A stretch of DNA of 64,000 nt from an uncultured Candidatus Saccharibacteria bacterium (lineage in GTDB: Bacteria; Patescibacteriota; Saccharimonadia; Saccharimonadales; JAGQNJ01). Of this stretch, positions 5,119 to 38,503 are shown piece after piece (the first letter of the stretch is position 1; every line of letters begins with the position of its first letter). The notes under the pieces are model-generated. The model was not told the DNA's origin, ran no database searches, and saw nothing but the letters and a program-made list of their open reading frames with translations. Location of the stretch: contig CAZOUW010000002.1 of the NCBI GenBank assembly GCA_964583075.1, positions 5,915-69,914 of the forward strand, read 5' to 3'. The position numbers were made by a program, and so were the translations under genes.

Positions 5119-5654
5119 TATTTCTTCTCCGCTGATTTAACCGGCTTCTTTGCAAGATTTTTCTTGGTAGTTATCCATTTACTCGCTGGTTCAACACTTG
5201 CTAACGCGTCAATGGTTGCGTACGCAATATTAATTTTGTTAGCTGATCCCAGTGACTTTGATAGAGCATTGTGTACACCGGCAACTTCTAGTACTGTGCG
5301 CACAACACCGCCTGCAATTAGCCCAGTACCAGCACTAGCTGGCTTTAGTAGGATACGTGCACCTGAAACTTTTGCTTCTGTTTCGTGAGGTATTGTACCC
5401 TTATACAGTGCTACATTTACCATGTTTTTCTTGGCAACATCAGTTGCCTTTGTGATTGCGCTCGTCACATCAAGTCCCTTCGACACGCCAGCACCGACAC
5501 GCCCTTTATGATCCCCAACAACCACGAGAGCTCGAAATCGGAACCTTCGGCCGCCTTTTACTACACGTGCAACGCGATCAATATGGACCATACGCTCGTC
5601 AAGTTGATTCTCGTCTTGACGTAGTTCTTTTGCTAATTGTCTGTTCTCAGCCAT
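5118..5654 (-). CDS. rpsE: 30S ribosomal protein S5
   Basis: 178 aa with S5 dsRBD and C-terminal domains (VVKGGRRFRFRALVVVGD). It abuts rplO directly, with no L30 gene in between. Confidence 0.93.
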   Translation of the reverse strand: MAENRQLAKELRQDENQLDERMVHIDRVARVVKGGRRFRFRALVVVGDHKGRVGAGVSKGLDVTSAITKATDVAKKNMVNVALYKGTIPHETEAKVSGARILLKPASAGTGLIAGGVVRTVLEVAGVHNALSKSLGSANKINIAYATIDALASVEPASKWITTKKNLAKKPVKSAEKK

Positions 5655-5655
5655 A

Positions 5656-6012
5656 TTAAAACTCCAATCCGCCTTCTCGGGCTTTATCCGCCAAGGCCTT
5701 CACGCGTCCGTGGTACAGGCGTCCATTACGGTCAAAAATAACCTTTTTTATCTTCTTTTCCTTCGCTAATTTAGCAATCTCAGTACCGACCCACTCGGCA
5801 CGCTCTGTCATAGTACCTTTTGCTGACTTGTTACCTATAGTTGTAGTCGCTACGATTGTTGCATGTTTACTATCGTCAATTATTTGTGCGCTTATATGAA
5901 TGTTACTCACAAATACACATAGCCTTGGACGTTCCGTGGTGCCACGAGTAACCTTGCGAATACGTGCCTTACGGCGAGCCAGATTTTGAGTTTTTTGATG
6001 CAAACGGTTCAT
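5656..6012 (-). CDS. rplR: 50S ribosomal protein L18
   Basis: 118 aa. L18 family sequence in canonical position. Confidence 0.92.
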   Translation of the reverse strand: MNRLHQKTQNLARRKARIRKVTRGTTERPRLCVFVSNIHISAQIIDDSKHATIVATTTIGNKSAKGTMTERAEWVGTEIAKLAKEKKIKKVIFDRNGRLYHGRVKALADKAREGGLEF

Positions 6013-6552
6013 CTACTTATCCTTTCCTGACTTACCTGATTTTCTGATGATATGTTCACCCTCGTAGCGAATACCCTTGCCCTTATATGGTTCGGGTTTC
6101 TTAAGCGCTCTGATCTCTGCTGCTACCTGACCAACTTGCTGCTTCGTAATTCCAGAAACAGTTATGGTGTTTTGCTCAACGGAGGCAGTAATACCTTCTG
6201 GGAGCGTGTACTCAACTTGGTGCGAGAAGCCTAAATTCAACTTTAGCTGATTACCGGCAAGGGCAACACGAAAGCCAACGCCATGAATCTCAAGCTTCTT
6301 GCTAAAGCCTTCTGTTACACCCGTAACCATATTATTAATGAGTGCTCGCATTAAGCCATGCTTTGCACGATGTTCCGGCTGGTCATCAACGCGGATTACA
6401 ATAACTTGATCATCTTCTTGTTTAACTGTAATACCTGTCATTGTAAACTGTTTAAGTTCACCCTTAGGGCCTTTTACAGTAACAAAATCGTTGTCGACAG
6501 TGATTGTCACACCAGCTGGAATCTTGATTGGTAGTTTTCCTACTCGACTCAT
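6013..6552 (-). CDS. rplF: 50S ribosomal protein L6
   Basis: 179 aa; MSRVGKLPIKIPAGVTITV is a typical L6 start. Confidence 0.93.
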   Translation of the reverse strand: MSRVGKLPIKIPAGVTITVDNDFVTVKGPKGELKQFTMTGITVKQEDDQVIVIRVDDQPEHRAKHGLMRALINNMVTGVTEGFSKKLEIHGVGFRVALAGNQLKLNLGFSHQVEYTLPEGITASVEQNTITVSGITKQQVGQVAAEIRALKKPEPYKGKGIRYEGEHIIRKSGKSGKDK

Positions 6553-6566
6553 CTTATTACCTCGTT

Positions 6567-6965
6567 TTAATAAACCTTACAAATTAACTCTCCGCCCAGA
6601 CGTGACTTACGGGCATCGCTGCCAGTCATTAGCCCTTGCGAAGTTGAAACAATAACAATACCACGACCACGCTTTACGGTTGGGATACCTTGTACATTAA
6701 CGTACTGACGTCGGCCAGGTGTGCTCATACGTTCAATTGCCGTAATATTTGCGTTGTGGTCTTCAGAATTGATGCGTATTACAAGATGTTTGTTTACACC
6801 TTCACCATCTACGCTAACACTTTGAATAAAGTCATTATCGGCAAGTAGTTGAGCAATTGATTCTTTAATGCGTGAATACGGTACATTGACCTCGTTTTTA
6901 CGAACCATAATCGCATTGCGGATTCTGGTAAGCATATCTGAAATTGGATCTGTAGATGTCATCAT
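6567..6965 (-). CDS. rpsH: 30S ribosomal protein S8
   Basis: 132 aa; DPISDMLTRIRNA is an S8 signature. Confidence 0.93.
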   Translation of the reverse strand: MMTSTDPISDMLTRIRNAIMVRKNEVNVPYSRIKESIAQLLADNDFIQSVSVDGEGVNKHLVIRINSEDHNANITAIERMSTPGRRQYVNVQGIPTVKRGRGIVIVSTSQGLMTGSDARKSRLGGELICKVY

Positions 6966-6972
6966 TCTCTCC

Positions 6973-7242
6973 TTACCAGCTTGCCTTTGTTACGCCTGGA
7001 ATCTCACCTTTGGAAGCATGTTCACGGAATGAAATGCGACTTAGGCCAAATGTTCGCATATAGCCGCGAGGTCGACCGGTCTCTTCGCAGCGGTTCTTCC
7101 AACGCGTTGGCGATGAATTGCGAGGCAACTTATGTAAAGCCTCAAAATCACCAGCAGCCTTTAACTCAGCCCGCTTGTCAGCATATTTTGTTATCATGTT
7201 ACGACGCTTCTTATCACGAGCAACAATAGATTTTTTAGCCAT
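6973..7242 (-). CDS. rpsN: 30S ribosomal protein S14
   Basis: 89 aa; the C-terminus [31 protein letters not shown] is S14-like. Confidence 0.9.
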
Positions 7243-7817
7243 TACTTAGCCTCCTTATTCTTCTCAAACGGCATACCAAACTTGGTTAGTAGCGCCTTTG
7301 CATCTTCTGGTTTTTCAGCCCGTATTGCACAGACGACTTGCAAACCATGAGTAATTGGTGAATCTTCAAAGGTGATCTCTGGGAACACGGTCTGATCATT
7401 CAAGCCAATACTATAGTTGCCTTGCTTGTCAAAAGCCTTTGCACCTACACCGTGGAAGTCACGAAGTCTTGGCAGCACAATATTGATCAGTCGATCAAGG
7501 AACTCGTACATTTGATCACCACGAAGTGTCACTTTAAGACCAATTTTATTACCTTCACGCAGTTTAAAGCTAGCAATTGAAAGTTTAGCGGTTGTTTGGA
7601 TTGGTTCTTGGCCAGTTATTTTGCGAAGTGTAGTTGTCGCAACTTCCATGAGCCGTTTATCATCTTTTGCACGCCCCAAACCAACGTTAATTACTATTTT
7701 TTCAAGTTTTGGTACTTGGTTGACGTTTTTTAGTTCTAACTCTTTTACAAGTTCACTAACAAATTGATCATTGTATTGGCTCTTCAAACGAGCTGATATT
7801 GCAATTGTTTTAGCCAT
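7242..7817 (-). CDS. rplE: 50S ribosomal protein L5
   Basis: 191 aa with L5 family motifs. Confidence 0.93.
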
Positions 7818-8146
7818 TACTTGATCTCCTTTCCTGATTTCTTGTATATACGAATTTTCTTGCCGTCTTTATCGAGCTTGTAGCCAATTTTACTTGGCTT
7901 TTTGCTGGTAGCCTCTACAATGGCGACCTTGCTTACGTCAATTGGCTTGGTAACATCAATAATGCCACCTTGTGGGTATTGTTTGTTGGGCTTAACATGT
8001 TTCTTAACGATGTTAATACCCTCTACCGTAACCTTATTTTCGGTAGGGTGGGTAGTAACAACCTTGCCGGTCTTGCCCTTTTCTTTGCCACTAATAACAA
8101 CTACGGTATCGCCTTTTTGTAATCGGATTTTATAAATAGTATTCAT
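7817..8146 (-). CDS. rplX: 50S ribosomal protein L24
   Basis: 109 aa with a KOW motif (KIRLQKGDTVVVISGKEKGKTGKV). Confidence 0.92.
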   Translation of the reverse strand: MNTIYKIRLQKGDTVVVISGKEKGKTGKVVTTHPTENKVTVEGINIVKKHVKPNKQYPQGGIIDVTKPIDVSKVAIVEATSKKPSKIGYKLDKDGKKIRIYKKSGKEIK

Positions 8147-8147
8147 A

Positions 8148-8516
8148 TTAGAGCACCTCCGGCGCTAGGCTGATAATCTTTGCATACCCCTGGTCACGTA
8201 GTTCACGCGGAACTGGGCCAAAAATACGAGTTGCCTTAGGTAGTTTGTCATCACCAATAATTACTGCTGCATTGTCGTCAAATTTAATAGTAGAACCATC
8301 CTTGCGCTTAATGACAGCCTTTGAGCGCACCACGACTGCACGTACCACAGTCTTCTTCTTTACATTGCCAGTCGGGCTGGCATCTTTAACAGTCGCAACG
8401 ATAATGTCACCTACGCTTGCGTAGCGACGACGAGTACCACCAAGGACGCGGATACACAAAATTTCTTTTGCACCGCTGTTATCACAGACTTTTAGTCGAG
8501 ACTCTTGCTGTACCAT
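8148..8516 (-). CDS. rplN: 50S ribosomal protein L14
   Basis: 122 aa; [18 protein letters not shown] is a typical L14 start. Confidence 0.94.
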
Positions 8517-8800
8517 TATGCCGTCTCCTCGGTTGCTTCTTTAATATCTTCATCACGAAGTGCTGGTCGCTCGATAATCTTCTTAAGTTCGTAACGCTTA
8601 CGTGCACTCAATGGACGTGTCTCGCTAATCAAAACTTTATCTCCTATTTTGGCTTCGTTCTTCTCATCATGTGCCATAACTTTTTGAGACGCAATGTAGC
8701 GTTTCTTGTAGATTGGGTGACTCTTATGGGTGACAATAGTCACAACAATTGACTTGTCTGGACGATCAGAAGTAACGGTACCTTGTAAGACTTTTGCCAT
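8516..8800 (-). CDS. rpsQ: 30S ribosomal protein S17
   Basis: 94 aa. S17 OB fold in canonical position. Confidence 0.92.
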
Positions 8801-9001
8801 CTACTTGGTCTCCTTTGTTAGTTGTTCGCTTAGCACAGTAAGCATACGTGCAAGATCACGGCGTTTGCCACGGATTGCTCGTGAATTTTGTAACTCACCC
8901 ATGGCAATCTGACGACGCAGTTCTGCAATCTCTTCTCTCAGCTGTGTGCTCTGTTTAGTTAAATCAATAGTTGATAATTTACGGATTTCTAACATCTTCA
9001 T
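8801..9001 (-). CDS. rpmC: 50S ribosomal protein L29
   Basis: ORF 8801..9022. The likely start is the internal MKMLEIRKLS, which avoids overlap with rplP. The sequence has the L29 helical signature. Confidence 0.85.
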   Translation of the reverse strand: MKMLEIRKLSTIDLTKQSTQLREEIAELRRQIAMGELQNSRAIRGKRRDLARMLTVLSEQLTKETK

Positions 9002-9002
9002 A

Positions 9003-9416
9003 TTAATTTTCCTCCCGTACAAGGAATTTAGTCTTTACAGGTAGCTTATGTGCAGCTAGGCGCATCGCTTCGCGTGCTACCTCTTCTGATACTCCCTGCA
9101 TCTCAAACATAATGGTACCGGGACGGACTTTAGCGACAAAGAAGTCGGGGCTACCCTTACCGCTACCCATTTTAGTTCCAACTGCTTTGCGAGTCACTGG
9201 GGTGTGCGGAAATATACGGATCCAAATTTTACCACCACGCTTTATGTAACGAGTCATCGCTTGACGTGCCGCCTCAATTTGACGTGAAGTAATACGGTCC
9301 ATACCTTGCGACTGCAGGGCATACTGACCAAAGGCAATCGTATTACCGCTAGTGGCAACACCCTTCATTCGGCCAACGCGTACTCGTCTAAACTTCGTTC
9401 GTTTTGGTATCAACAT
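9003..9416 (-). CDS. rplP: 50S ribosomal protein L16
   Basis: 137 aa; [19 protein letters not shown] is a typical L16 start. Confidence 0.94.
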
Positions 9417-9417
9417 C

Positions 9418-10047
9418 TTAATTCACCTCGCCTTTGTAGATCCAAACTTTTACGCCAATAATGCCGGCTGGAGTTTGAGCAGGAACGTATGCATAATCAA
9501 TATCAGCACGAAGTGTATGAAGTGGAACGCTGCCCTGTATCTCTTTTTCGCGTCGCGCCATCTCGGCGCCGTTCAGACGTCCAGAAACTTGAATACGAAT
9601 GCCTTTAGCACCAGCACGCATTGTTGCCGCCGCAGAAGACTTAATTGCACGTCTGAATGAAATACGTCGCTGAAGTTGGAATGCAATGTTTTCTGCAACT
9701 AGCTTTGCATATAGTTCAGGCTTCTTGACTTCTTCAATATTCACTCGCACTGGTACTTTATATATCTTCTCAATCGCAGACTTTAGCTCTTGAACACCTG
9801 CACCACCACGACCAATTACGACACCTGCTTTAGCAGTCGAAAGTGTTACTGTGACTAGATTGGGTGATCGCTCAATATCAACTTTATTAATCGCAGCTCG
9901 GCTTCCAAGCTTAACATCAATCATGCGTCTTACTTCAAGATCCTGAGTCAAGTATTTGGCGTACTCTCTCTTGCTAACAAACCACTTACTACGCCAGTCT
10001 TTATTGACCTGCAGGCGCATTGAAATTGGGTTAACTTTCTGTCCCAT
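9418..10047 (-). CDS. rpsC: 30S ribosomal protein S3
   Basis: 209 aa with KH and S3-C domains ([12 protein letters not shown]). Confidence 0.94.
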
Positions 10048-30803: not shown

Positions 30804-31754
30804 TTAACACGGACCGTAACTTCCGCTATATTCTTTCCCTAAATCAAGTGTCTTATAAATAGAGCTAAAACCCTGTGGCTTACTATTGCACATTTTAGTC
30901 TTGCCACCCGTATATTCAACATGAAATACTGGCTTTCCTTGACTAATGAAACCACTAACCAGAACATCGCATTCGTCGTACTGCAGACACTCCTCATTTA
31001 CAGCGTATTCCACATAGGGTGAAAGTTTGTTGACCGAACCAGAATCCAACATATTTTTAAGCCCAGCAGCCATCCCTCGCTCGTGAGCCGCAGATGCTAG
31101 ATTAATAACTAACTGTTCAGCCTTGGCTTTGGTAAGCGAAAAACCCGTACCAGAGTATTGATCTACATTGTCAGGTTCAACCCCATCACAGCCTCGTGAT
31201 TTTGCTAAATCAAGCCGTTTTATTATCACTGGCCAATATTCTGGAGCATCCCAGTTTACATACCATTCTCCGTCCCAGTCGGGATACTTATTTCCCCTTA
31301 TACTCAAAGGAAAATTATATTCTCCACTTCGCCAATCTTCGTAGTGAACAGAAAAATAACAAATTATTTTCTTGTTTTTAGACTTCAACGCACTGATATC
31401 ACTATCTTTAGCATCAAATAAATCAATATCAAAAACTTCAGCGTTAACGTTCGTATCTACCGTACCTGTGATTTGCCACTGCCAAGAGATACCAGCAGAC
31501 GGCTTCCAATACGTATCTACAGGCGGTTGAGTGACAGTCCCGAATTGAACATAAGAACCACCAGATGCGCCTGAATCACCACCTTTACGCAAACTTTGCT
31601 GACTAAAAGTTCCTTGTTGTGATTCTGGTTCAATAGAAATGGAGTTTACAGCAGCGCTAGCCAGCAAAGTTGCCCACAAACCGACAAAAGCAATAATAAT
31701 AAGCACTAGACGATATTTCTTAGCCGCCACCATTACTGCTTGAAGTTTAATCAT
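30804..31754 (-). CDS. secreted/membrane-anchored glycoside hydrolase, GH114 (TM1410/PelA-hydrolase-like) family
   Basis: ORF 30804..31832. The likely start is the internal MIKLQ, followed by a signal/TM segment. Motifs DIDLFD, ICYFS, GCDGVEPDNVD and VFHVEY resemble endo-alpha-1,4-polygalactosaminidase/GH114. Confidence 0.6.
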   Translation of the reverse strand: MIKLQAVMVAAKKYRLVLIIIAFVGLWATLLASAAVNSISIEPESQQGTFSQQSLRKGGDSGASGGSYVQFGTVTQPPVDTYWKPSAGISWQWQITGTVDTNVNAEVFDIDLFDAKDSDISALKSKNKKIICYFSVHYEDWRSGEYNFPLSIRGNKYPDWDGEWYVNWDAPEYWPVIIKRLDLAKSRGCDGVEPDNVDQYSGTGFSLTKAKAEQLVINLASAAHERGMAAGLKNMLDSGSVNKLSPYVEYAVNEECLQYDECDVLVSGFISQGKPVFHVEYTGGKTKMCNSKPQGFSSIYKTLDLGKEYSGSYGPC

Positions 31755-31934
31755 ATCAACCGTGATTATGCTTTTATAACAAGCATTGTAACGTAAACCA
31801 TAAAATAATAATACACAGTGAAAACTTAACAATAAAACCCCCTGAAAAGGAGGCCTGTTGTGTTGGTGGACCTAACCGCGCAGCAACTGAAACAGGGACC
31901 CCTAAGGACCCCTGCTGTTTCAAGTAACAACTAT

Positions 31935-32220
31935 TTGGTGCCTCTATACGATGAGGTTAGAACCTATTTTATCTCAAAAAGCTGAAAAGCGAGAACCTAA
32001 GCTCAGCCCTGCTGCCTTGCGGGCAAGTCTGCCCGTTGCGCCCCGCCAGAAAACCGCCTTTGAATTTTTAGATTTTCCCGCCGTTCCTTATTTTTCTAAA
32101 TGAAAAGTCGGTATTTTTGTCGGTTCGCCTGCGCATAGCGCAGAAGTGGCTGGGGCTTGGCTGGTTAATATTACAAGTATGTGCGTTAGATCACTCACAG
32201 TGTTTTTAAGTATTTTTGTT
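31935..32220. repeat. IR1-L: 286-bp inverted repeat, exact reverse-complement of 36194..36479
   Basis: A manual reverse-complement comparison of this stretch (ggtgcctctatacgatgaggttagaacc...cagtgtttttaagtatttttgtt) against IR1-R found no mismatch. Its outer end is ttggtg. Confidence 0.9.
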
Positions 32221-32661
32221 GGCTTTTTTATGCCGTCGGATTTCTATGAACGTAAGTGCCGTAATGACCAGGAAAGACAAAAAAGACATAAAAGGAATAG
32301 TGATAAAACCAAACCAGTTAATCTGCGGTACGGCACAAGAACTATCTATTGAACAAGTTTTAATTGCTTCTTCTATTATGCCCCATTGTAAGAGTGAATG
32401 GTAGAAAGCGATCATCGATCCGACAAGGCTAAGCGGCAACACATAATAGGCCGCATTATTGTCTTTACGGTAAACACCGACACCTAATATAAATGCGAGT
32501 GGAAACATAAATATCCTTTGATACCAACACAAGGCACACGGTACCAAATCCATCACCTCACTAAGCACCATACTGCCTAGTGAAGCCCCGATTGCTACTA
32601 GCCAAGCAATAAAAACCAAATTATTTAAAAACAAAGTATGTATTTGTTTCGTTTTAATCAT
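32206..32661 (-). CDS. disulfide bond formation protein B (DsbB/BdbC family, quinone-dependent thiol oxidase)
   Basis: The internal start MIKTKQIH gives 151 aa. There are 4 TM helices, a CALCWYQR motif in periplasmic loop 1 and a second Cys pair (CSIDSSCAVP). The longer ORF 32206..32718 overlaps the upstream gene. Confidence 0.75.
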   Translation of the reverse strand: MIKTKQIHTLFLNNLVFIAWLVAIGASLGSMVLSEVMDLVPCALCWYQRIFMFPLAFILGVGVYRKDNNAAYYVLPLSLVGSMIAFYHSLLQWGIIEEAIKTCSIDSSCAVPQINWFGFITIPFMSFLSFLVITALTFIEIRRHKKANKNT

Positions 32662-32674
32662 ATATTTTATTCTA

Positions 32675-33847
32675 CTATTGTTTGCAGACTGGACAAACTT
32701 CTTCCTCGACAAACCCATACCGCCAGGTGATTAAAGCCTTCCGCAGTGGAAGAAATGATAGATATAATTTGAAGTCAGCCAACCGTCTTAATAGCCACCC
32801 TAACCGTCCATAGATACGAACCTTCCCCCACAGTACTGCAGCCCAATGCGGACCGACTGGGATAGCATAAATTGGGCGTTTCGGTTTATAACTATATAAG
32901 GTTTGTCTTTTCGATTTTCTAAGCAAGTTTTCTGCAACAAATTTTGCATCGTGAATTGCGGTCTGCGCCATACCAGCGTAGGTAGTCGAGGCACTGTCGC
33001 CAATCACATAGATATTTTGGTTAGCTTGGAGAAATTGATCTACCTCAACTCGACCTGACTTACCTTGCCTAAACAGTTTTCCAGATTGACTAAAAAATGG
33101 GTTATTGACTACTCCCGCTGTCCATATAACGGTATGTGACTTGATCGGTCCTCTAGGTAAGTAAATGCCATCGAGTGTCTCTGATTTAACTGATGCTTCC
33201 AGCTTAGTCTTTACGCCCACCTTTTTAAGCCGATTTAGAACGTCAGTCGAAAAATCTTCTGGCATTGAAGCAAGAACCCTAGGAGCAGCTTCAACTAAAT
33301 TAACCGTAAAAGGGGCTTTTATCTTGTGCTTTTTTCGTATCTTTTTTAGATATGCTACCAGTTCAGCACTGAGTTCCACGCCGGTTGCTCCAGCTCCGAT
33401 CACCACATAATTTCTTTCCGTCTCTGTAGCCAACAACTGTTCATGCATATGGCGTTTTAGCTGTAATGCTTCGTGAACCGTCTTCACACCGTAAGAGAAC
33501 CTCTCAAGCCCCCTGATATTATAAAATTCGGTCACATTACCCAACGCTAGTATCAGCTCCTCATATGTATACTTCGAGCCTGATTCGCCTGAAATAAACT
33601 TTTTTTGTTTGTCGATTGTTGTAACTGTGTCCTCAATTACCTCAACATTTTTTGCATAAGCAAAAAAATCACGCAGCGGTATGGCTACTTCTAGTGGCGA
33701 ACGTCCAGTAGCTGATCGATACAGCGCAGCGTGATACTCAAAATAACTCTGGCTAGAAATCAATTTTACTTCCACTCCTGATTTATTCGACAAGGATAAT
33801 GCAGCTCGTACACCACCAAACCCGCCGCCAACAATAACGACCTTCAT
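32675..33847 (-). CDS. ndh: type II NADH:quinone oxidoreductase (NDH-2) / FAD-dependent pyridine nucleotide-disulfide oxidoreductase
   Basis: 390 aa with two Rossmann GxGxxG motifs (VVIVGGGFGGVRAA; VVIGAGATGVE) and NDH-2-like architecture. Confidence 0.8.
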   Translation of the reverse strand: MKVVIVGGGFGGVRAALSLSNKSGVEVKLISSQSYFEYHAALYRSATGRSPLEVAIPLRDFFAYAKNVEVIEDTVTTIDKQKKFISGESGSKYTYEELILALGNVTEFYNIRGLERFSYGVKTVHEALQLKRHMHEQLLATETERNYVVIGAGATGVELSAELVAYLKKIRKKHKIKAPFTVNLVEAAPRVLASMPEDFSTDVLNRLKKVGVKTKLEASVKSETLDGIYLPRGPIKSHTVIWTAGVVNNPFFSQSGKLFRQGKSGRVEVDQFLQANQNIYVIGDSASTTYAGMAQTAIHDAKFVAENLLRKSKRQTLYSYKPKRPIYAIPVGPHWAAVLWGKVRIYGRLGWLLRRLADFKLYLSFLPLRKALITWRYGFVEEEVCPVCKQ

Positions 33848-35506
33848 TTAAAAACTCTTTCTGATGTGGATTTGCGAAAACTCCAAACTAGCATCGGTTT
33901 TTTTGTGTGGATTAAATATGTTATCAGGATCAAACAGTTTCTTCACAGTTTTGAATATCTGCATCATTTCTGGAGAGTACATATACTCAAGCATCGGACC
34001 ACGTATCATACCGTCGTTATGCTCACCAGATAACGAGCCATTGTATTGTAATACCAAATCCGTAACCTCTTCGAGAGCTGGATATATCTTGTGTCTTTCG
34101 GATTCAACACGTAAATCCATTAGTGGGATGATATGGAAATTTCCATCTCCCATATGCCCAGCAACGGTGTAAAGCAATTTATATCGCTCTAATATTTCGG
34201 TTAAGCGTGGTAAAAATTCAGGTAGCGTTTCCGGAGGTACTATCAAGTCATCAATAAAAGGGGCGGTGTGTTTACGTTTAACGTTTTTTCTAAGCAAGTT
34301 AAAGCTTTCTCGGCGCATTGTCCAAAACTTCTCTTCCTGATGCCTATCTTCGGCCAATTGGGTCTCAATGTTCTTACTCTGCATCATCTGTTGTAACTGA
34401 TGTATCTTTCTGTCTATTTCATTTTGTTCTGTAGCTTCAAACTCGCACAAGAGGATTATTTTTGGAAAACTGGGCAAAAACCGAAGTAAATGTTTTAAAA
34501 CTGGTAAGAAACTTAAGCCAAGTAATATAAACCGCTTCCAACCTAAAGTTTTACGAAAACTAAAGAAAAACCTGAAAGCAAACTTGAGTGTATGGTCGTC
34601 AAACGACTCCAAACTTGTTGGCCTCATTGGCAATATATCGTTAATTATTTCACCGAGTCCATCGAGATTTTTTAGAAAAATCACTACCATCCCCGAGAGT
34701 GGCTTAGCCGGAACAAGCCGAAAAGTAGCTTCAGTTATTAGACCCAGTGTACCCTGAGAGCCAACGATGATCTTTGTCATGTCAAACGCTTCTCCGTCCC
34801 AAACATCCCAAATATTGTAAGCAGTTGAGTTTTTGCTGACCTTGGGCTTTGATGCCTTAATTATTTCTTGATTTTCCGTGACCAATTTATAAATCCCACG
34901 GTATAAATCGCCTTCTAAACCAGTCTCGTTTAACTTTTGTTTCAATGTTTTTTTATCAATAGCTTGAAATGTATGCTCTTTGCCGTCTCTCAGCACAATC
35001 TTGACCTGTTTTACATACCGATCTGTTTTGCCATATATCAGAGATTTTTCACCGCCAGCATTGTTTGCCACCATACCACCGATCATACATAAATCTTTTG
35101 ATGCGGGATATGATGGCATTATTAACCCCTGCTCCAATGTCTTGGGTTCAAAATCACGATAGTAAACGCCAGGCTGTACGGTAACTTCATTATCTTTGAT
35201 TTGCCCAACCTGTGTAAAGTAGCGCCCATATGCCACGATAATAGACTCGTTAATAGCTCCGCCGGACATATCTGTACCGCCGCTGCGACCAGTCAGTGAA
35301 AGATCAGGGTGCGATAGTTTATTCTTAGACACATGTTCTACTAGGTTGCAAATGTCTGTTACGTCTCGTGGATAAGCTATTGCTTCAGGTTTAATCTCAA
35401 ACAAACTGGCGTCGTGGCTATATAAACCACGCGCATGTCTATCTACTTCTATATTGCCCTTGAAAAATCTTTTGATGTCCTCGTGGAGGTGGGTAAATTT
35501 ACCCAT
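33848..35506 (-). CDS. FAD-linked oxidase (FAD_binding_4 + FAD-oxidase C-terminal domains; GlcD/D-lactate dehydrogenase-like)
   Basis: 552 aa with TGRSGGTDMSGGA in the PCMH-type FAD-binding domain and a C-terminal FAD-oxidase domain. Confidence 0.7.
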   Translation of the reverse strand: MGKFTHLHEDIKRFFKGNIEVDRHARGLYSHDASLFEIKPEAIAYPRDVTDICNLVEHVSKNKLSHPDLSLTGRSGGTDMSGGAINESIIVAYGRYFTQVGQIKDNEVTVQPGVYYRDFEPKTLEQGLIMPSYPASKDLCMIGGMVANNAGGEKSLIYGKTDRYVKQVKIVLRDGKEHTFQAIDKKTLKQKLNETGLEGDLYRGIYKLVTENQEIIKASKPKVSKNSTAYNIWDVWDGEAFDMTKIIVGSQGTLGLITEATFRLVPAKPLSGMVVIFLKNLDGLGEIINDILPMRPTSLESFDDHTLKFAFRFFFSFRKTLGWKRFILLGLSFLPVLKHLLRFLPSFPKIILLCEFEATEQNEIDRKIHQLQQMMQSKNIETQLAEDRHQEEKFWTMRRESFNLLRKNVKRKHTAPFIDDLIVPPETLPEFLPRLTEILERYKLLYTVAGHMGDGNFHIIPLMDLRVESERHKIYPALEEVTDLVLQYNGSLSGEHNDGMIRGPMLEYMYSPEMMQIFKTVKKLFDPDNIFNPHKKTDASLEFSQIHIRKSF

Positions 35507-35516
35507 TGATTACCTC

Positions 35517-36056
35517 CTATTCGAGTATTGGAAATCGTTTGACCAAAGACTGTTTAACCCACCAGCTCCGCAAACCCCAAACCTGTCTGTCATTTGCAGC
35601 TAACAAGCCCAGTAAGACCACGGAGTAAATGACGTGATCGTCTATAATCGGGTTATTTTCAGGTAATATCATTGCCGACCACATCATCATAAACAGCAAT
35701 ACCCCTGAGATTGTTGCTATTCTCATACCGATACCGGCTATTAGTGCAAACCCAATAAGCAAAAGTCCTGCCATAAACAGTACATCAACAAAGGTATTGC
35801 CAGCTAAGCCCTGATAGAAATCAGCAAATGGTCCCTTAGTAGCAAATTCTAAGAATCCAGTGGTTGGTGAACCACCGTTTATCCAAGCTTTTTCACATAA
35901 CATAGTTACAGTATTAGTTTCGGCATCTCGACAGGTAGCGAAGCCTAGGCCAAGCAGCTTATCGAAAAATGCCCACAACAGCGTGAATCCGAGTAAAATA
36001 CGAGCCATTGCCCAGAAGTATGGTGATTTATCATTTGTTGAATTTTGTTTTGCCAT
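35517..36056 (-). CDS. DoxX-family membrane protein (quinone-interacting, TQO small-subunit-like)
   Basis: 179 aa with about 4 TM helices. RILLGFTLLWAFFDKLLG is a DoxX-like N-terminus. Confidence 0.6.
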   Translation of the reverse strand: MAKQNSTNDKSPYFWAMARILLGFTLLWAFFDKLLGLGFATCRDAETNTVTMLCEKAWINGGSPTTGFLEFATKGPFADFYQGLAGNTFVDVLFMAGLLLIGFALIAGIGMRIATISGVLLFMMMWSAMILPENNPIIDDHVIYSVVLLGLLAANDRQVWGLRSWWVKQSLVKRFPILE

Positions 36057-36193
36057 ATTAATCCTTGCTTAACGTTAACGCTTATCTATAGTAAGTATAG
36101 CTTCAGAAGCTTTTATATTCAAGATTCAAGTGCTGGGCAGAGCCATTAATAACCACTTACTTTATAGCGCTAACTCTGACTGTTAGAGTGCTT

Positions 36194-36479
36194 AACAAAA
36201 ATACTTAAAAACACTGTGAGTGATCTAACGCACATACTTGTAATATTAACCAGCCAAGCCCCAGCCACTTCTGCGCTATGCGCAGGCGAACCGACAAAAA
36301 TACCGACTTTTCATTTAGAAAAATAAGGAACGGCGGGAAAATCTAAAAATTCAAAGGCGGTTTTCTGGCGGGGCGCAACGGGCAGACTTGCCCGCAAGGC
36401 AGCAGGGCTGAGCTTAGGTTCTCGCTTTTCAGCTTTTTGAGATAAAATAGGTTCTAACCTCATCGTATAGAGGCACCAA
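36194..36479. repeat. IR1-R: 286-bp inverted repeat, partner of 31935..32220
   Basis: Perfect reverse-complement match to IR1-L. Its outer end ...gaggcaccaag fuses directly to IR2-L. Confidence 0.9.
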
Positions 36480-36610
36480 GAAAGTACTAAAATCGGAATT
36501 GCGGCGCAAATGCGCCGTTTTTTCTTTGGTTGCGCGAAGCGCCAACCAAGGATTTTTCAGAGGGGGAGAAATATTTGGGGCGGCCGCTGGCTGCGCCTTC
36601 TTGGATTTTA
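36474..36610. repeat. IR2-L: inverted copy of tRNA-Leu 3'-flank, its terminator, and the recombinase 3' end (partner 38155..38295)
   Basis: Sequence caccaagaaagtactaaaatcggaattgcggcgcaaatgcgccgttttttctttggttgcgcgaagcgccaaccaaggatttttcagagggggagaaatatttggggcggccgctgg is the reverse-complement of 38155..38295 with about 3-4 mismatches at the distal end. It includes an orphan hairpin+T7 terminator at 36503-36524 on the plus strand. It encodes a 75-aa minus-strand ORF (36429..36656) that mirrors the recombinase C-terminus. Confidence 0.85.
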
Positions 36611-36643
36611 GACCGCCATTGGTGGTTTTTGCTATACTGGAGT

Positions 36644-36726
36644 TGGACACAATCAAAGCGGAATAGCTATTTTAATTGGCTCAGATAGCCGTCTCGTACA
36701 ATTTGGTTATTCCGGATTGTGTCCAG
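36644..36726. promoter_or_regulatory. 12-bp inverted repeat pair (ttggacacaatc ... gattgtgtccag) upstream of the recombinase gene; candidate operator/recombinase binding site
   Basis: 11/12 match, separated by 59 bp, ending about 30 bp before the recombinase ATG. The palindrome aatagctatt also lies between them. Confidence 0.3.
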
Positions 36727-36757
36727 CGAGGCGGCTATTTGAGTTCAAGGGGGTGTT

Positions 36758-38503
36758 ATGAGTAAGTGGTACACTTATGCTAGAAAATCAACAGACGTTG
36801 AAGATAAACAAGTTTTATCCATTGAAGCACAATTGGTTGAACTCCGGGAGTTTGCCAAGCGAGAGGGTTTAGATATAGCCGCCGAGTTTGTCGAGAAACA
36901 ATCCGCTAAAAGTCCAGGTCGTCCGGTTTTTGGCAAATTACTGACTGAAATTGAAAAATCTGGCGGTAATATACTCGCTTGGCATCCAGACAGGCTTGCC
37001 CGCAATTCCATTGACGGCGGACAGATTGTCTACTTACTGGACAGTGGCAAGCTGGACAACCTGAAGTTCCCGTCATTTTGGTTTGAAAATACTTCTCAAG
37101 GCAAATTTATGCTGAGTATTGCTTTTGGTCAAAGCAAATACTATGTAGACAATCTGTCCGAGAACACCAAGCGTGGACTTCGCCAAAAAGTCCGAATGGG
37201 ACTTTATCCGGGCTGTGCGCCCGTTGGATATATAAATGATGTCCGCAGTAAAAGCATTGTCATAGACAAACGGCTTGCGCCGGTTGTTGTTTCCGCTTTT
37301 GAGCTGTATGCCAAAGGCGAGAGCCGGCTGGAAGATATTGCAGTTTTTCTTAAAAGCAAAGGCGTTGCCACCAAAAGCGGCAAACAACTAAGCAAAGACC
37401 AGATCAAACGGATATTGACCAATCCGTTTTACTACGGACACTTCAAATTCTTAGGCGAAGTCCACGAGGGCAAGCATAAACCAATTGTGCCTAAAAAACT
37501 GTTTGACCAAGTACAAACAGTTTTAAGCCGTAGAGGGCGACCACAAAAAGGAAAAACCACCCCGCAAATCTTTTGCGGTTTGCTGGCCTGCGCTTCTTGC
37601 GGATTATCCGTAACTGGCGAGCACAAAATAAAACGTCAGAAAAATGGCAATATCCATGAGTATATTTATTATAGGTGCACCAAAAAGCGCAAAGATTTCA
37701 AATGCTTAGAACCTGCTGTTACCCAAAGTGATTTAACAGAGCAATTATCTAGCTTATTGACTGAATATGCCATGCCAAAGGCATGGGCCAGCAAACTTGA
37801 AGCTATGCTTCAAGAAGATGAAAAGGAAGTCAACCAAACTGTTTCAGTGTTTGTAGCTAACGCCCAAACACGACTTGTTAGTTTGCAAGGTAAACTCCAG
37901 CGACTTTTAGATGGTTATTTAGACCAAGACATTGAGCAAAGTGTTTATCGAGCTAAACAAGCTGGGTTGATGTCCGAGAAAAAGTCGCTGGAAGAGCAAG
38001 TCAGCAAACTCACGCTTGCCGGAAGCAGTTGGATAGAACCTATGCGCCAATGGATAAAACAGGCTGTTTCAAACGGTGAAACAGCCAAAAAAGCCGAGCC
38101 AAGTGCCATAAAGGAAGCACTAACTAAAATGGAAGGATTGAACCTATTTCTAAAATCCAAAAAGGCACGGCCAGCGGCCGCCCCAAATATTTCTCCCCCT
38201 CTGAAAAATCCTTGGTTGGCGCTTCGCGCAACCAAAGAAAAAACGGCGCATTTGCGCCGCAATTCCGATTTTAGTACTTTCTTGGTGGGCGAGAAAGGAC
38301 TTGAACCTTCACGCCTTGCGGCACTAGTTCCTAAGACTAGCGTGTCTACCAATTCCACCACTCGCCCACGATACCAAATTGTTAAATACCGATGTATTTT
38401 ACCCTATGCGACGGTAAAATACCAGTGTCGAATCGCCATACTCTTTCTTTGTCCTCAAATTAAAACCCTCGCCAAGATTCACTTCGACATCTGGTGGAAG
38501 TGA
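36758..38503 (+). CDS. large serine recombinase (resolvase catalytic domain + recombinase domain + zinc ribbon); 3' ~350 nt of ORF reads through att-like repeat and antisense tRNA-Leu
   Basis: 581-aa ORF. The N-terminus YARKSTDVEDKQ...LAWHPDRLARN carries the serine-recombinase catalytic Ser and Arg motifs. Recombinase-domain and Cys4 zinc-ribbon motifs (CGLLACASCG...YYRC) follow. The C-terminal part after about aa 465 overlaps IR2-R and tRNA-Leu and is probably not native coding sequence. Confidence 0.8.
   Translation: MSKWYTYARKSTDVEDKQVLSIEAQLVELREFAKREGLDIAAEFVEKQSAKSPGRPVFGKLLTEIEKSGGNILAWHPDRLARNSIDGGQIVYLLDSGKLDNLKFPSFWFENTSQGKFMLSIAFGQSKYYVDNLSENTKRGLRQKVRMGLYPGCAPVGYINDVRSKSIVIDKRLAPVVVSAFELYAKGESRLEDIAVFLKSKGVATKSGKQLSKDQIKRILTNPFYYGHFKFLGEVHEGKHKPIVPKKLFDQVQTVLSRRGRPQKGKTTPQIFCGLLACASCGLSVTGEHKIKRQKNGNIHEYIYYRCTKKRKDFKCLEPAVTQSDLTEQLSSLLTEYAMPKAWASKLEAMLQEDEKEVNQTVSVFVANAQTRLVSLQGKLQRLLDGYLDQDIEQSVYRAKQAGLMSEKKSLEEQVSKLTLAGSSWIEPMRQWIKQAVSNGETAKKAEPSAIKEALTKMEGLNLFLKSKKARPAAAPNISPPLKNPWLALRATKEKTAHLRRNSDFSTFLVGEKGLEPSRLAALVPKTSVSTNSTTRPRYQIVKYRCILPYATVKYQCRIAILFLCPQIKTLAKIHFDIWWK
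38155..38295. repeat. IR2-R: partner of 36474..36610; spans recombinase 3' end, tRNA-Leu terminator and tRNA-Leu 3' terminus
   Basis: Near-identical inverted copy. Its outer end ...gtactttcttggtg corresponds to the complement of the tRNA CACCA 3' end. Confidence 0.85.
38236..38258 (-). terminator. Rho-independent terminator downstream of tRNA-Leu
   Basis: Hairpin ggcgcaaatgcgcc followed by TTTTTT on the minus strand, about 25 nt after the tRNA 3' end. Confidence 0.55.
38283..38367 (-). tRNA. tRNA-Leu (anticodon TAG), 85 nt including encoded CCA
   Basis: Manual fold: acceptor GGGCGAG/CTCGCCC, U8, 3-bp D-stem GTG/CAC with GAATTGGTAGA loop, anticodon stem CTAGT/ACTAG with loop CTTAGGA (anticodon TAG), a long 13-nt variable arm, and T-arm GAAGG-TTCAAGT-CCTTT, followed by ACCA. 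Confidence 0.85.

Follow-up and report, generated by a model that had tools for sequence, protein, structure and literature searches.

A four-gene redox operon as probable cargo of a large-serine-recombinase element at a tRNA-Leu gene in Saccharibacteria

Four co-oriented genes and their products

The DNA analyzed here is a 64-kb window of a Saccharibacteria contig, compared throughout with metagenome contigs and loci that bear L-numbers. The window is core chromosome, with the ribosomal protein operon, rpoBC and the genes for HisRS, RecG and NusA. Our subject is a segment of 6353 nt within it (31935-38287) that abuts a tRNA-Leu gene and consists of two units, a four-gene redox operon (the cassette) and the gene of a large serine recombinase, each enclosed by its own pair of inverted repeats. 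Our findings lead us to favor, as the probable explanation, that the operon is a cargo module of a 6.35-kb large-serine-recombinase integrative element inserted at the CCA end of this tRNA-Leu gene, with a putative quinone-linked function. A sequence-only reading of the same DNA had described the cassette as mobile cargo and, should the host be of Patescibacteria type, as a horizontally acquired and possibly switchable electron sink. Such a host is indeed what we find: for every cassette protein, and likewise for the recombinase, the closest relatives belong to metagenome-assembled genomes of Saccharibacteria/Saccharimonadales.

Four open reading frames (ORFs) occupy the minus strand in the same direction at 35517-36056, 33848-35506, 32675-33847 and 32206-32718 (179, 552, 390 and 170 aa), where the sequence-only reading had placed them. 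In the order of transcription they encode a DoxX-like protein, an enzyme linked to flavin adenine dinucleotide (FAD), an NADH:quinone oxidoreductase of type II (NDH-2) and a DsbB; homology supports the last three assignments solidly and gives the first a remote match only. The intergenic gaps among the first three genes, 10 nt and then 0 nt, are operon-like. The tight packing described earlier stands, with gaps of 10, 0 and 13 nt, but the overlapping stops and starts do not: the 44-nt overlap of NDH-2 with DsbB is only a product of choosing the longest ORF, and the DsbB start at M20 (32661), found in the public gene call P0254 (151 aa) and in the homolog from L047, leaves a 13-nt gap after NDH-2. 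A promoter-like site (TTGAAT-17-TATACT; 36094-36122, minus strand), which is a consensus match only, lies upstream of the DoxX-like gene and within the repeat-bounded segment.

The BdbC-type DsbB disulfide oxidoreductase (32206-32661, minus strand; 151 aa from M20, with the longest ORF reaching 32718) matches the Pfam DsbB model at 59.5 bits (cut-off 22.1; 6e-16) and, at 131.2 bits, passes the cut-off of 124 of the BdbC-type NCBIfam model PRK03113. Its cysteine pairs, in the numbering of the longest ORF, are the CxxC C61/C64 (PCALCWYQR) and C122/C128, and it is in passing the BdbC-type cut-off, in the PCxLCWYQR motif and in the second cysteine pair that the protein resembles Bacillus subtilis BdbC, a member of the DsbB family. 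Unlike BdbC, it comes without a BdbD/DsbA partner gene, none being present in the operon or among the ORFs of the 64-kb window scanned with Pfam.

The NDH-2-like flavoprotein (390 aa; 32675-33847, minus strand) matches Pfam Pyr_redox_2 at 3.6e-40, and its best solved relative is the Caldalkalibacillus NDH-2 4nwz (1.6e-33, residues 3-363), followed by YjlD of B. subtilis and the S. aureus NDH-2. The two GxGxxG dinucleotide-binding motifs are readable as GGGFGG and GAGATG, and at the quinone site AQTAIH aligns with AQIAIQ of 4nwz, the second Q of the AQxAxQ motif being replaced by H (AQxAxH). The C-terminal region aligns with solved NDH-2 and no transmembrane segment is predicted. A lineage-specific C-terminal CPVC (residues 385-388, window 32675-32692) supplies the only cysteines of the protein; this CxxC is kept in the Saccharibacteria homologs examined (six at 62-73% and four at ~40% identity), is gone from more distant ones, and may be redox-active or metal-binding.

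The second gene in the operon encodes an FAD-linked D-2-hydroxyacid dehydrogenase of the D-lactate/glycolate/D-2-hydroxyglutarate type (552 aa; 33848-35506, minus strand), as judged from its Pfam domains and solved relatives. FAD_binding_4 (84.6 bits) and FAD-oxidase_C (167.2 bits) are each above cut-off, the motifs GHxGDGNxH and SGEH are readable, and among solved structures the enzyme comes nearest to glycolate oxidase, D-lactate dehydrogenase and D-2-hydroxyglutarate dehydrogenase. Every score falls below its equivalog cut-off, with 267 bits against YdiJ (cut-off 1350; N-terminal half only, matching YdiJ residues 24-540) and 213 against GlcD (cut-off 568), and any particular substrate is therefore only putative. 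The two domains are shared with the N-terminal half of E. coli YdiJ, with GlcD and with the D-lactate and D-2-hydroxyglutarate dehydrogenases, but the window enzyme lacks the Fe-S/CCG half of YdiJ and the GlcE/GlcF partners of the Glc system. It further differs in an insertion at residues 300-345 (FAFRFFFSFRKTLGWKRFILLGLSFLPVLKHLLRFL), rich in Phe, Leu, Arg and Lys and with a hydrophobic 19-mer at 326-344, which could be a membrane-binding element.

The first gene encodes a DoxX/DoxD-like four-helix membrane protein (179 aa; 35517-36056, minus strand). DoxX/DoxD membrane proteins are known from a subunit of thiosulfate:quinone oxidoreductase and from the DoxX of Mycobacterium tuberculosis. The window protein is similarly small and membrane-borne, with four long helices in its predicted structure (pLDDT 87.8), and 26 of its 31 close relatives match Pfam DoxX, weakly, at E<=1 (best 6e-6); relatives bear the JGI name DoxD. 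It differs from DoxX/DoxD proteins in falling below significance itself and in having an extra loop, following the first helix, with two cysteines (C42, C54) that are invariant in its family and could form a disulfide dependent on the co-encoded DsbB.

These cysteines invite an alternative to quinone chemistry, a quinone-independent thiol-disulfide relay in which the CxxC dithiol of the NDH-2-like protein and the cysteine pair of the DoxX-like protein would act with DsbB. In keeping with it, the CxxC contributes the sole cysteines of its protein and is conserved in all ten Saccharibacteria homologs examined, the two loop cysteines are invariant in the DoxX-like family, and organisms of the candidate phyla radiation (CPR) are without quinone synthesis (PMC8407418). 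We nevertheless consider such a relay improbable. The alignment of the NDH-2-like protein with true NDH-2 extends from one end to the other and includes the AQxA motif of the quinone site, the C terminus of the protein is expected to be cytoplasmic whereas the cysteines of DsbB and of the DoxX-like protein face outward, and several versions of the operon are missing DsbB altogether.

Inverted repeats, recombinase and tRNA-Leu

From the repeats and from comparison with related loci, the whole integrated element (31935-38287, 6353 nt) can be written x|A - cargo - A'|B' - recombinase - B|tRNA. Arm A (31935-32220, plus strand) and arm A' (36194-36479, minus strand) are inverted repeats of 286 nt with 100% complementarity that enclose the four cassette genes, bearing out the earlier description of an island flanked by inverted repeats. 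Arm B' (36474-36612, minus strand), an inverted duplicate of the last 46 recombinase codons, and arm B (38149-38287, plus strand; 139 nt, 98% complementary to B') enclose the large serine recombinase gene. These two pairs are the only repeats >=40 nt in the window. A 6-nt core, TTGGTG, stands at 31935, at 36474 (as its reverse complement) and at 38282, where it closes arm B and overlaps the ACCA terminus of the tRNA-Leu gene (anticodon TAG; 38283-38367, minus strand), whose acceptor stem is intact and which we take as the integration target. Read on the opposite strand, the joined A'B' gives B and then A with the core in common, and the same core closes both x|A and B|tRNA.

The recombinase ORF (36758-38503, plus strand) has Resolvase, Recombinase and Zn-ribbon domains, all three above Pfam cut-offs, and a readable N-terminal serine motif, YARKST. 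Homologous coding stops at 38287; past this point the ORF runs antisense through tRNA-Leu, and the native tail is lost. That tail is found at the start of arm A, where the first 6 nt are the core and the next 45 nt encode 14 residues (PLYDEVRTYFISKS) and a stop. The motif [YF][DNE]xxRT[YFH]F within it is conserved across the recombinase family, and the nucleotide changes in the motif cluster at synonymous positions (AGA/CGA/CGT, ACC/ACT/ACG, TAT/TAC, TTT/TTC). With its native tail the window recombinase would end ...FLVPLYDEVRTYFISKS. Since B holds the last 46 codons and the start of A the conserved tail, the recombinase gene natively ends in B|A, its attP-like joint. This joint is also present as an intact inverted copy, formed by B' together with A', which lies directly upstream of the recombinase gene and is read by an entry in the ORF list (36429-36656, minus strand).

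The far end of arm A bears on the cassette. Its last 15 nt are the end of the DsbB gene, whose last four sense codons and stop thus come from the arm, an arrangement that looks like a possible capture scar. About 215 nt of arm A are backbone conserved among related elements. An Rfam search of the arms and their surroundings matched only the tRNA. The predicted RNA fold of arm A is somewhat more stable than that of shuffled sequence (z = -3.4), an observation from which we draw no conclusion. A strong terminator-like hairpin, GCGGCGCAAATGCGCCGT with a T-run after it, is found in both B arms, at 38243-38260 (minus strand) and 36501-36518 (plus strand). The hairpin on the tRNA side points so as to end the tRNA-Leu transcript, and the element appears to bring the tRNA gene a candidate replacement terminator.

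Short-read assemblers can make palindromic joins, and one related contig, L095, may be such a product, so inverted repeats of this kind could in principle be an assembly artifact. Here we regard that as very improbable indeed. All junctions in the window recur in independent assemblies from other samples (L001, L002, L053, L068, L155 and L157), the same layout is seen in dozens of unrelated contigs, and it is precisely at the arm boundaries that contigs of independent metagenome assemblies end.

The earlier reading had also allowed for a switchable cassette. Perfect 286-nt inverted repeats adjoining a serine recombinase, and a recombinase segment that, with respect to the tRNA, points differently at different loci of the recombinase family (L077 and L091 versus the majority), would suit a phase-variable segment that the recombinase inverts to turn expression on and off. 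Several features make us doubt this strongly. The promoter-like site lies within the segment, every coding sequence is intact in both orientations, and the cassette has one and the same orientation in the window and in L001, the pair of assemblies that extend through arm A toward a neighboring GH114 gene, with the same arm-recombinase junction in L157. A flipped, tail-restored form of this recombinase was not found in the protein collection, where its cluster consists of two tRNA-fused forms only.

A CPR-wide recombinase family and the probable mobility of the cassette

A metagenome scan with the recombinase provided 80 loci (L069-L148) as a family survey, and at E<=1e-30 the recombinase has matches in at least 7,897 protein clusters. 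B'/B repeats are present in 40 of the 47 evaluable loci, and in 31 of those 40 arm B abuts a tRNA, with twelve tRNA types represented; native tail codons follow immediately past B' in 38 of 42 loci. An A/A' pair was found at 11 of the 22 loci with sufficient upstream sequence, with 1.2-7.2 kb between the arms, and the element measures 4-8 kb in most loci where both ends are seen. What the arms enclose is unrelated from one locus to the next and includes an alcohol dehydrogenase, a methylase and HNH nuclease (restriction-modification) pair, a PGDYG protein, an ABC/SMC ATPase and a secreted phosphatase, and the backbones of L084 and L090 are 92-98% identical around different cargo. Most family members read into the tRNA; the native tail is kept in L073, L074, L081 and L091/93/95, and L077 has its tRNA on the B' side. 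The arms are usually 95-100% identical while the recombinases diverge to ~45% identity, which points to ongoing homogenization or regeneration of the arms. The recombinase is <=30% identical to any phage or plasmid large serine recombinase, its best NCBIfam match, CcrB, is below cut-off, and no relatives were found in a viral contig collection. The recombinase and repeat layout is conserved over a large CPR-wide family whose cargo varies and whose tRNA targets are many.

The backbone of the window element has moved recently. In L155 a stretch of 2114 nt comprising A'B', the recombinase and B is 99.8% identical to the window, yet it abuts tRNA-Val(TAC) and has different neighbors. These neighbors (L155 1-7098) are tRNA-Leu(GAG), a distant FAD-oxidase paralog (29% identity), a solute-binding protein and SecG, and the L155 backbone could belong either to the genome of the window, as its second copy, or to a different organism. 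Recent mobility is also indicated by L109, in which a recombinase of 80% identity occupies the same tRNA-Leu/RsmD/RecG site between flanking housekeeping proteins that are only 53-64% identical. The tRNA-Leu site of the window is itself variable. The right flank of the window is 99.96% identical over 13.6 kb in L156 and 99.8% identical in L060, both of which lack the element and carry other DNA past tRNA-Leu, in one a terminator and a short-chain dehydrogenase gene and in the other a different terminator. Because near-identical strains have differing DNA after tRNA-Leu, this gene is a strain-variable hotspot. In both L156 (13520-14372) and L060 (900-1041) the 3' acceptor strand of the tRNA reads CATCCCC, with two mismatches to the 5' strand, which suggests that other islands may have integrated inside the tRNA gene in these strains. 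The proposal of the sequence-only reading that the cassette is mobile cargo is supported by these data, in that the architecture recurs at at least twelve tRNA types, the backbone is found at a tRNA-Val and strains differ at this tRNA-Leu.

The operon, in turn, is a feature of the lineage and is unusual here in its location, not in its content. L047 has the full four-gene operon with the order kept (65-74% aa identity) beside genes for thymidine kinase, HIT and valyl-tRNA synthetase (ValRS), and this context holds no repeats, tRNA or recombinase. Three-gene versions occur in L009, L010, L050, L150 (near ValRS/HIT) and L152 (near YchF/pilus genes), and in related Saccharibacteria the operon, at 65-83% aa identity, sits in ordinary chromosomal contexts that lack repeats, recombinase and tRNA. 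The G+C content at third codon positions (GC3) of the cassette equals that of host genes, and in codon usage NDH-2 and the FAD enzyme are inside the host range while the two short membrane proteins are slightly above it; neither base composition nor codon usage shows a sign of foreign origin. Contexts in relatives, host-like GC3 and near-host codon usage together indicate that the cassette is native to the lineage. The claim that it is foreign was therefore not borne out, either by these contexts or by the comparison of GC and codon usage with the flanks that had been suggested. The view that the cassette would be notable in a CPR genome is also weakened: NDH-2 with scavenged quinone has been published, the operon is found in the chromosomes of relatives, and BdbC-type DsbB homologs and the FAD enzyme are both common in CPR. 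The latter occurs across Levy-, Davies-, Vogel-, Parcu- and Paceibacteria, where it is mostly solitary; among 46 loci, NDH-2 lies <=10 kb from it in 12, a DoxX-like gene in 7 and DsbB in 2.

A native operon could be vertically inherited chromosomal DNA that lies by chance beside an integrated recombinase, with the A repeats the product of a local rearrangement and the operon never mobilized. Normal contexts in relatives, with L047 and L150 both near ValRS/HIT, as well as host-like GC3 and codon usage near the host range, speak for this alternative, and related loci lend it something more. In L104 the cargo (5464-9636) encodes an S51 peptidase together with a pair of aminoacyl-tRNA synthetases of class II, housekeeping-type genes that suggest that the repeat-bounded segment may sometimes be trapped chromosomal DNA. 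Together with this locus, two negative results weigh against a cargo role: the cassette was seen as cargo at no second site, L155 stopping at the arm boundary, and an empty tRNA-Leu|x site was not recovered in the contigs compared. We still judge chance juxtaposition unlikely. The cassette fills the exact position that unrelated cargo holds elsewhere, bounded by conserved backbone arms, and an arm supplies the last codons and stop of DsbB. Moreover, the flank genes of the window are found beside the operon in no relative, and near-identical strains differ at this very tRNA-Leu. We therefore favor the model in which a native operon probably became cargo of the element. Nucleotide comparison with relatives could not place the breakpoints of such a capture, as homology stops at the coding regions.

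Proposed mechanism, function and relation to known systems

The order x|A-C-A'|B'-R-B|t is not reproduced by one attP x attB integration or inversion, which also counts against the cargo model, and tandem or head-to-head double integrations, or inversion against a nearby attB, fail to reproduce it as well. Among the derivations tried, only a circle with two inverted joints yields the observed layout. We propose that the element, when free, would be circular, with cargo and recombinase set apart by two copies of the B|A joint in inverted orientation, with the predicted circle joint ...TTTAGTACTTTCTTGGTGCCTCTATACGATG... and the predicted empty site ...CTCGCCCACCAATAGTTGTTACTTG.... Integration via the joint at the recombinase 3' end would split that joint into the outer A and B arms and give the common tRNA-fused state; integration via the other copy, or inversion across B/B', would give a tail-intact recombinase. 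The inverted sites around the cargo would permit cassette exchange, and the operon may have been captured from the chromosome of a related Saccharibacterium. As a candidate for the circular form we considered L095, in which the recombinase lies between full 448-nt repeats, and rejected it, since an assembler walk through the repeated B arm gives the same path.

It is quite possible, though less likely than not, that the window element is an active member of a large integrative-element family specific to CPR/Patescibacteria and defined by an attP-like joint inside the recombinase 3' end and an inverted second joint before swappable cargo. If this twin-site design is true, the element could enter many tRNA genes at their CCA ends, in both orientations, and its recombinase could alternate between a form with the tail and one without, which would serve as a built-in switch for directionality or locking without an accessory factor. 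It could also exchange cassettes between elements and, here, move a quinone-reductase operon among Saccharibacteria strains.

The recombinase itself belongs with those of phage integrases, SCCmec CcrAB and TnpX/TndX, with which it shares the Resolvase, Recombinase and Zn-ribbon domains and short-core integration without long direct repeats. Unlike in this class, however, the recombinase ORF itself contains the attP-like joint, an inverted second copy of that joint accompanies it and two inverted-repeat pairs are nested. The archaeal virus SSV1, which uses a tyrosine recombinase, has its attP within the integrase gene, so that insertion into a tRNA gene splits the latter, and is not known to carry an inverted spare. 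In both elements, then, tRNA integration disrupts the recombinase ORF, but the window element loses only the last 14 recombinase codons and keeps an inverted spare. In the yeast 2-micron/FLP system and in Hin/Gin/Cin, two inverted repeats with recombination sites part two unique segments, and the recombinase gene is in or beside one of them. The window element differs from these in having no replication genes, in residing at a tRNA gene and in having been seen in one orientation only. Finally, it resembles the tycheposons of Prochlorococcus as a small tRNA-targeting cargo element that gives streamlined genomes islands differing from strain to strain. The recombinases of tycheposons are mostly tyrosine recombinases, with a minority of large serine recombinases, and tycheposons often carry replication modules (10.1101/2020.12.28.424599); twin inverted repeats are not reported for them. 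We found no published description of a twin-inverted-joint element in the literature searched.

As to function, NDH-2 and the FAD dehydrogenase would be peripheral membrane enzymes that pass electrons from NADH and from a D-lactate-like 2-hydroxyacid to scavenged, host-derived quinone, with the DoxX-like protein as a putative quinone-binding membrane partner. DsbB would oxidize extracytoplasmic thiols with the same quinone pool, and the quinol would be re-oxidized by a cyo- or cyd-type oxidase encoded elsewhere, or non-enzymatically. Use of scavenged quinone by NDH-2 has already been modeled for Saccharibacteria (PMC6031116, PMC8407418, PMC12592800, PMC13293708), and a chain from NDH through scavenged quinone to cytochrome bo3 (cyo) has been proposed for some of them (Kantor 2013; Starr 2018, PMC6031116; Nicolas 2021, PMC8407418). 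The window operon fits this partial respiratory chain in its single-subunit NADH dehydrogenase, there modeled on the C. thermarum NDH-2 with quinone assumed to be scavenged. It differs in that its NDH-2 is in an operon with the FAD enzyme, the DoxX-like protein and BdbC, has no linked oxidase and is on a mobile element.

This functional assignment also has points to its disadvantage. A Pfam scan found no quinol oxidase or quinone biosynthesis gene in the cassette or the 64-kb window. The FAD enzyme is mostly stand-alone in CPR and so may not need quinone. The DoxX-like protein scores E=5.5 against Pfam DoxX, which is not significant and leaves its membership weak, and searches of the PDB by sequence and by fold matched it to no solved structure. 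The electron sink envisaged by the sequence-only reading is incomplete: NDH-2, the FAD dehydrogenase and DsbB all reduce quinone, and the quinol needs an oxidase or another sink from elsewhere.

The cassette enzymes are new members of known families, the quinone-linked partial chain of Saccharibacteria is already known, and the cassette is moderately interesting; novelty lies above all in the architecture of the element. The gain for metabolism is modest, in that a conserved cluster of a DoxX-like protein, an FAD 2-hydroxyacid dehydrogenase and NDH-2, with or without BdbC, joins the scavenged-quinone picture, and such a redox cluster can probably move between strains. In the literature searched we found no specific description of DsbB or DoxX in Saccharibacteria, or of this gene cluster. 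On the side of the element, a compact one-recombinase design with readable attachment sites at tRNA CCA ends appears to be abundant across Patescibacteria. It could explain how accessory operons are exchanged among reduced genomes and could provide a tool for site-specific integration in organisms that are very hard to manipulate. Its conserved inverted spare recombinase end, moreover, suggests a new form of serine-integrase control without a separate directionality factor.

Directly outside the left end of the element, at 30804-31832 on the minus strand, lies the neighboring gene that served above to orient the cassette; it encodes a glycoside hydrolase of the GH114 family with an N-terminal hydrophobic segment.

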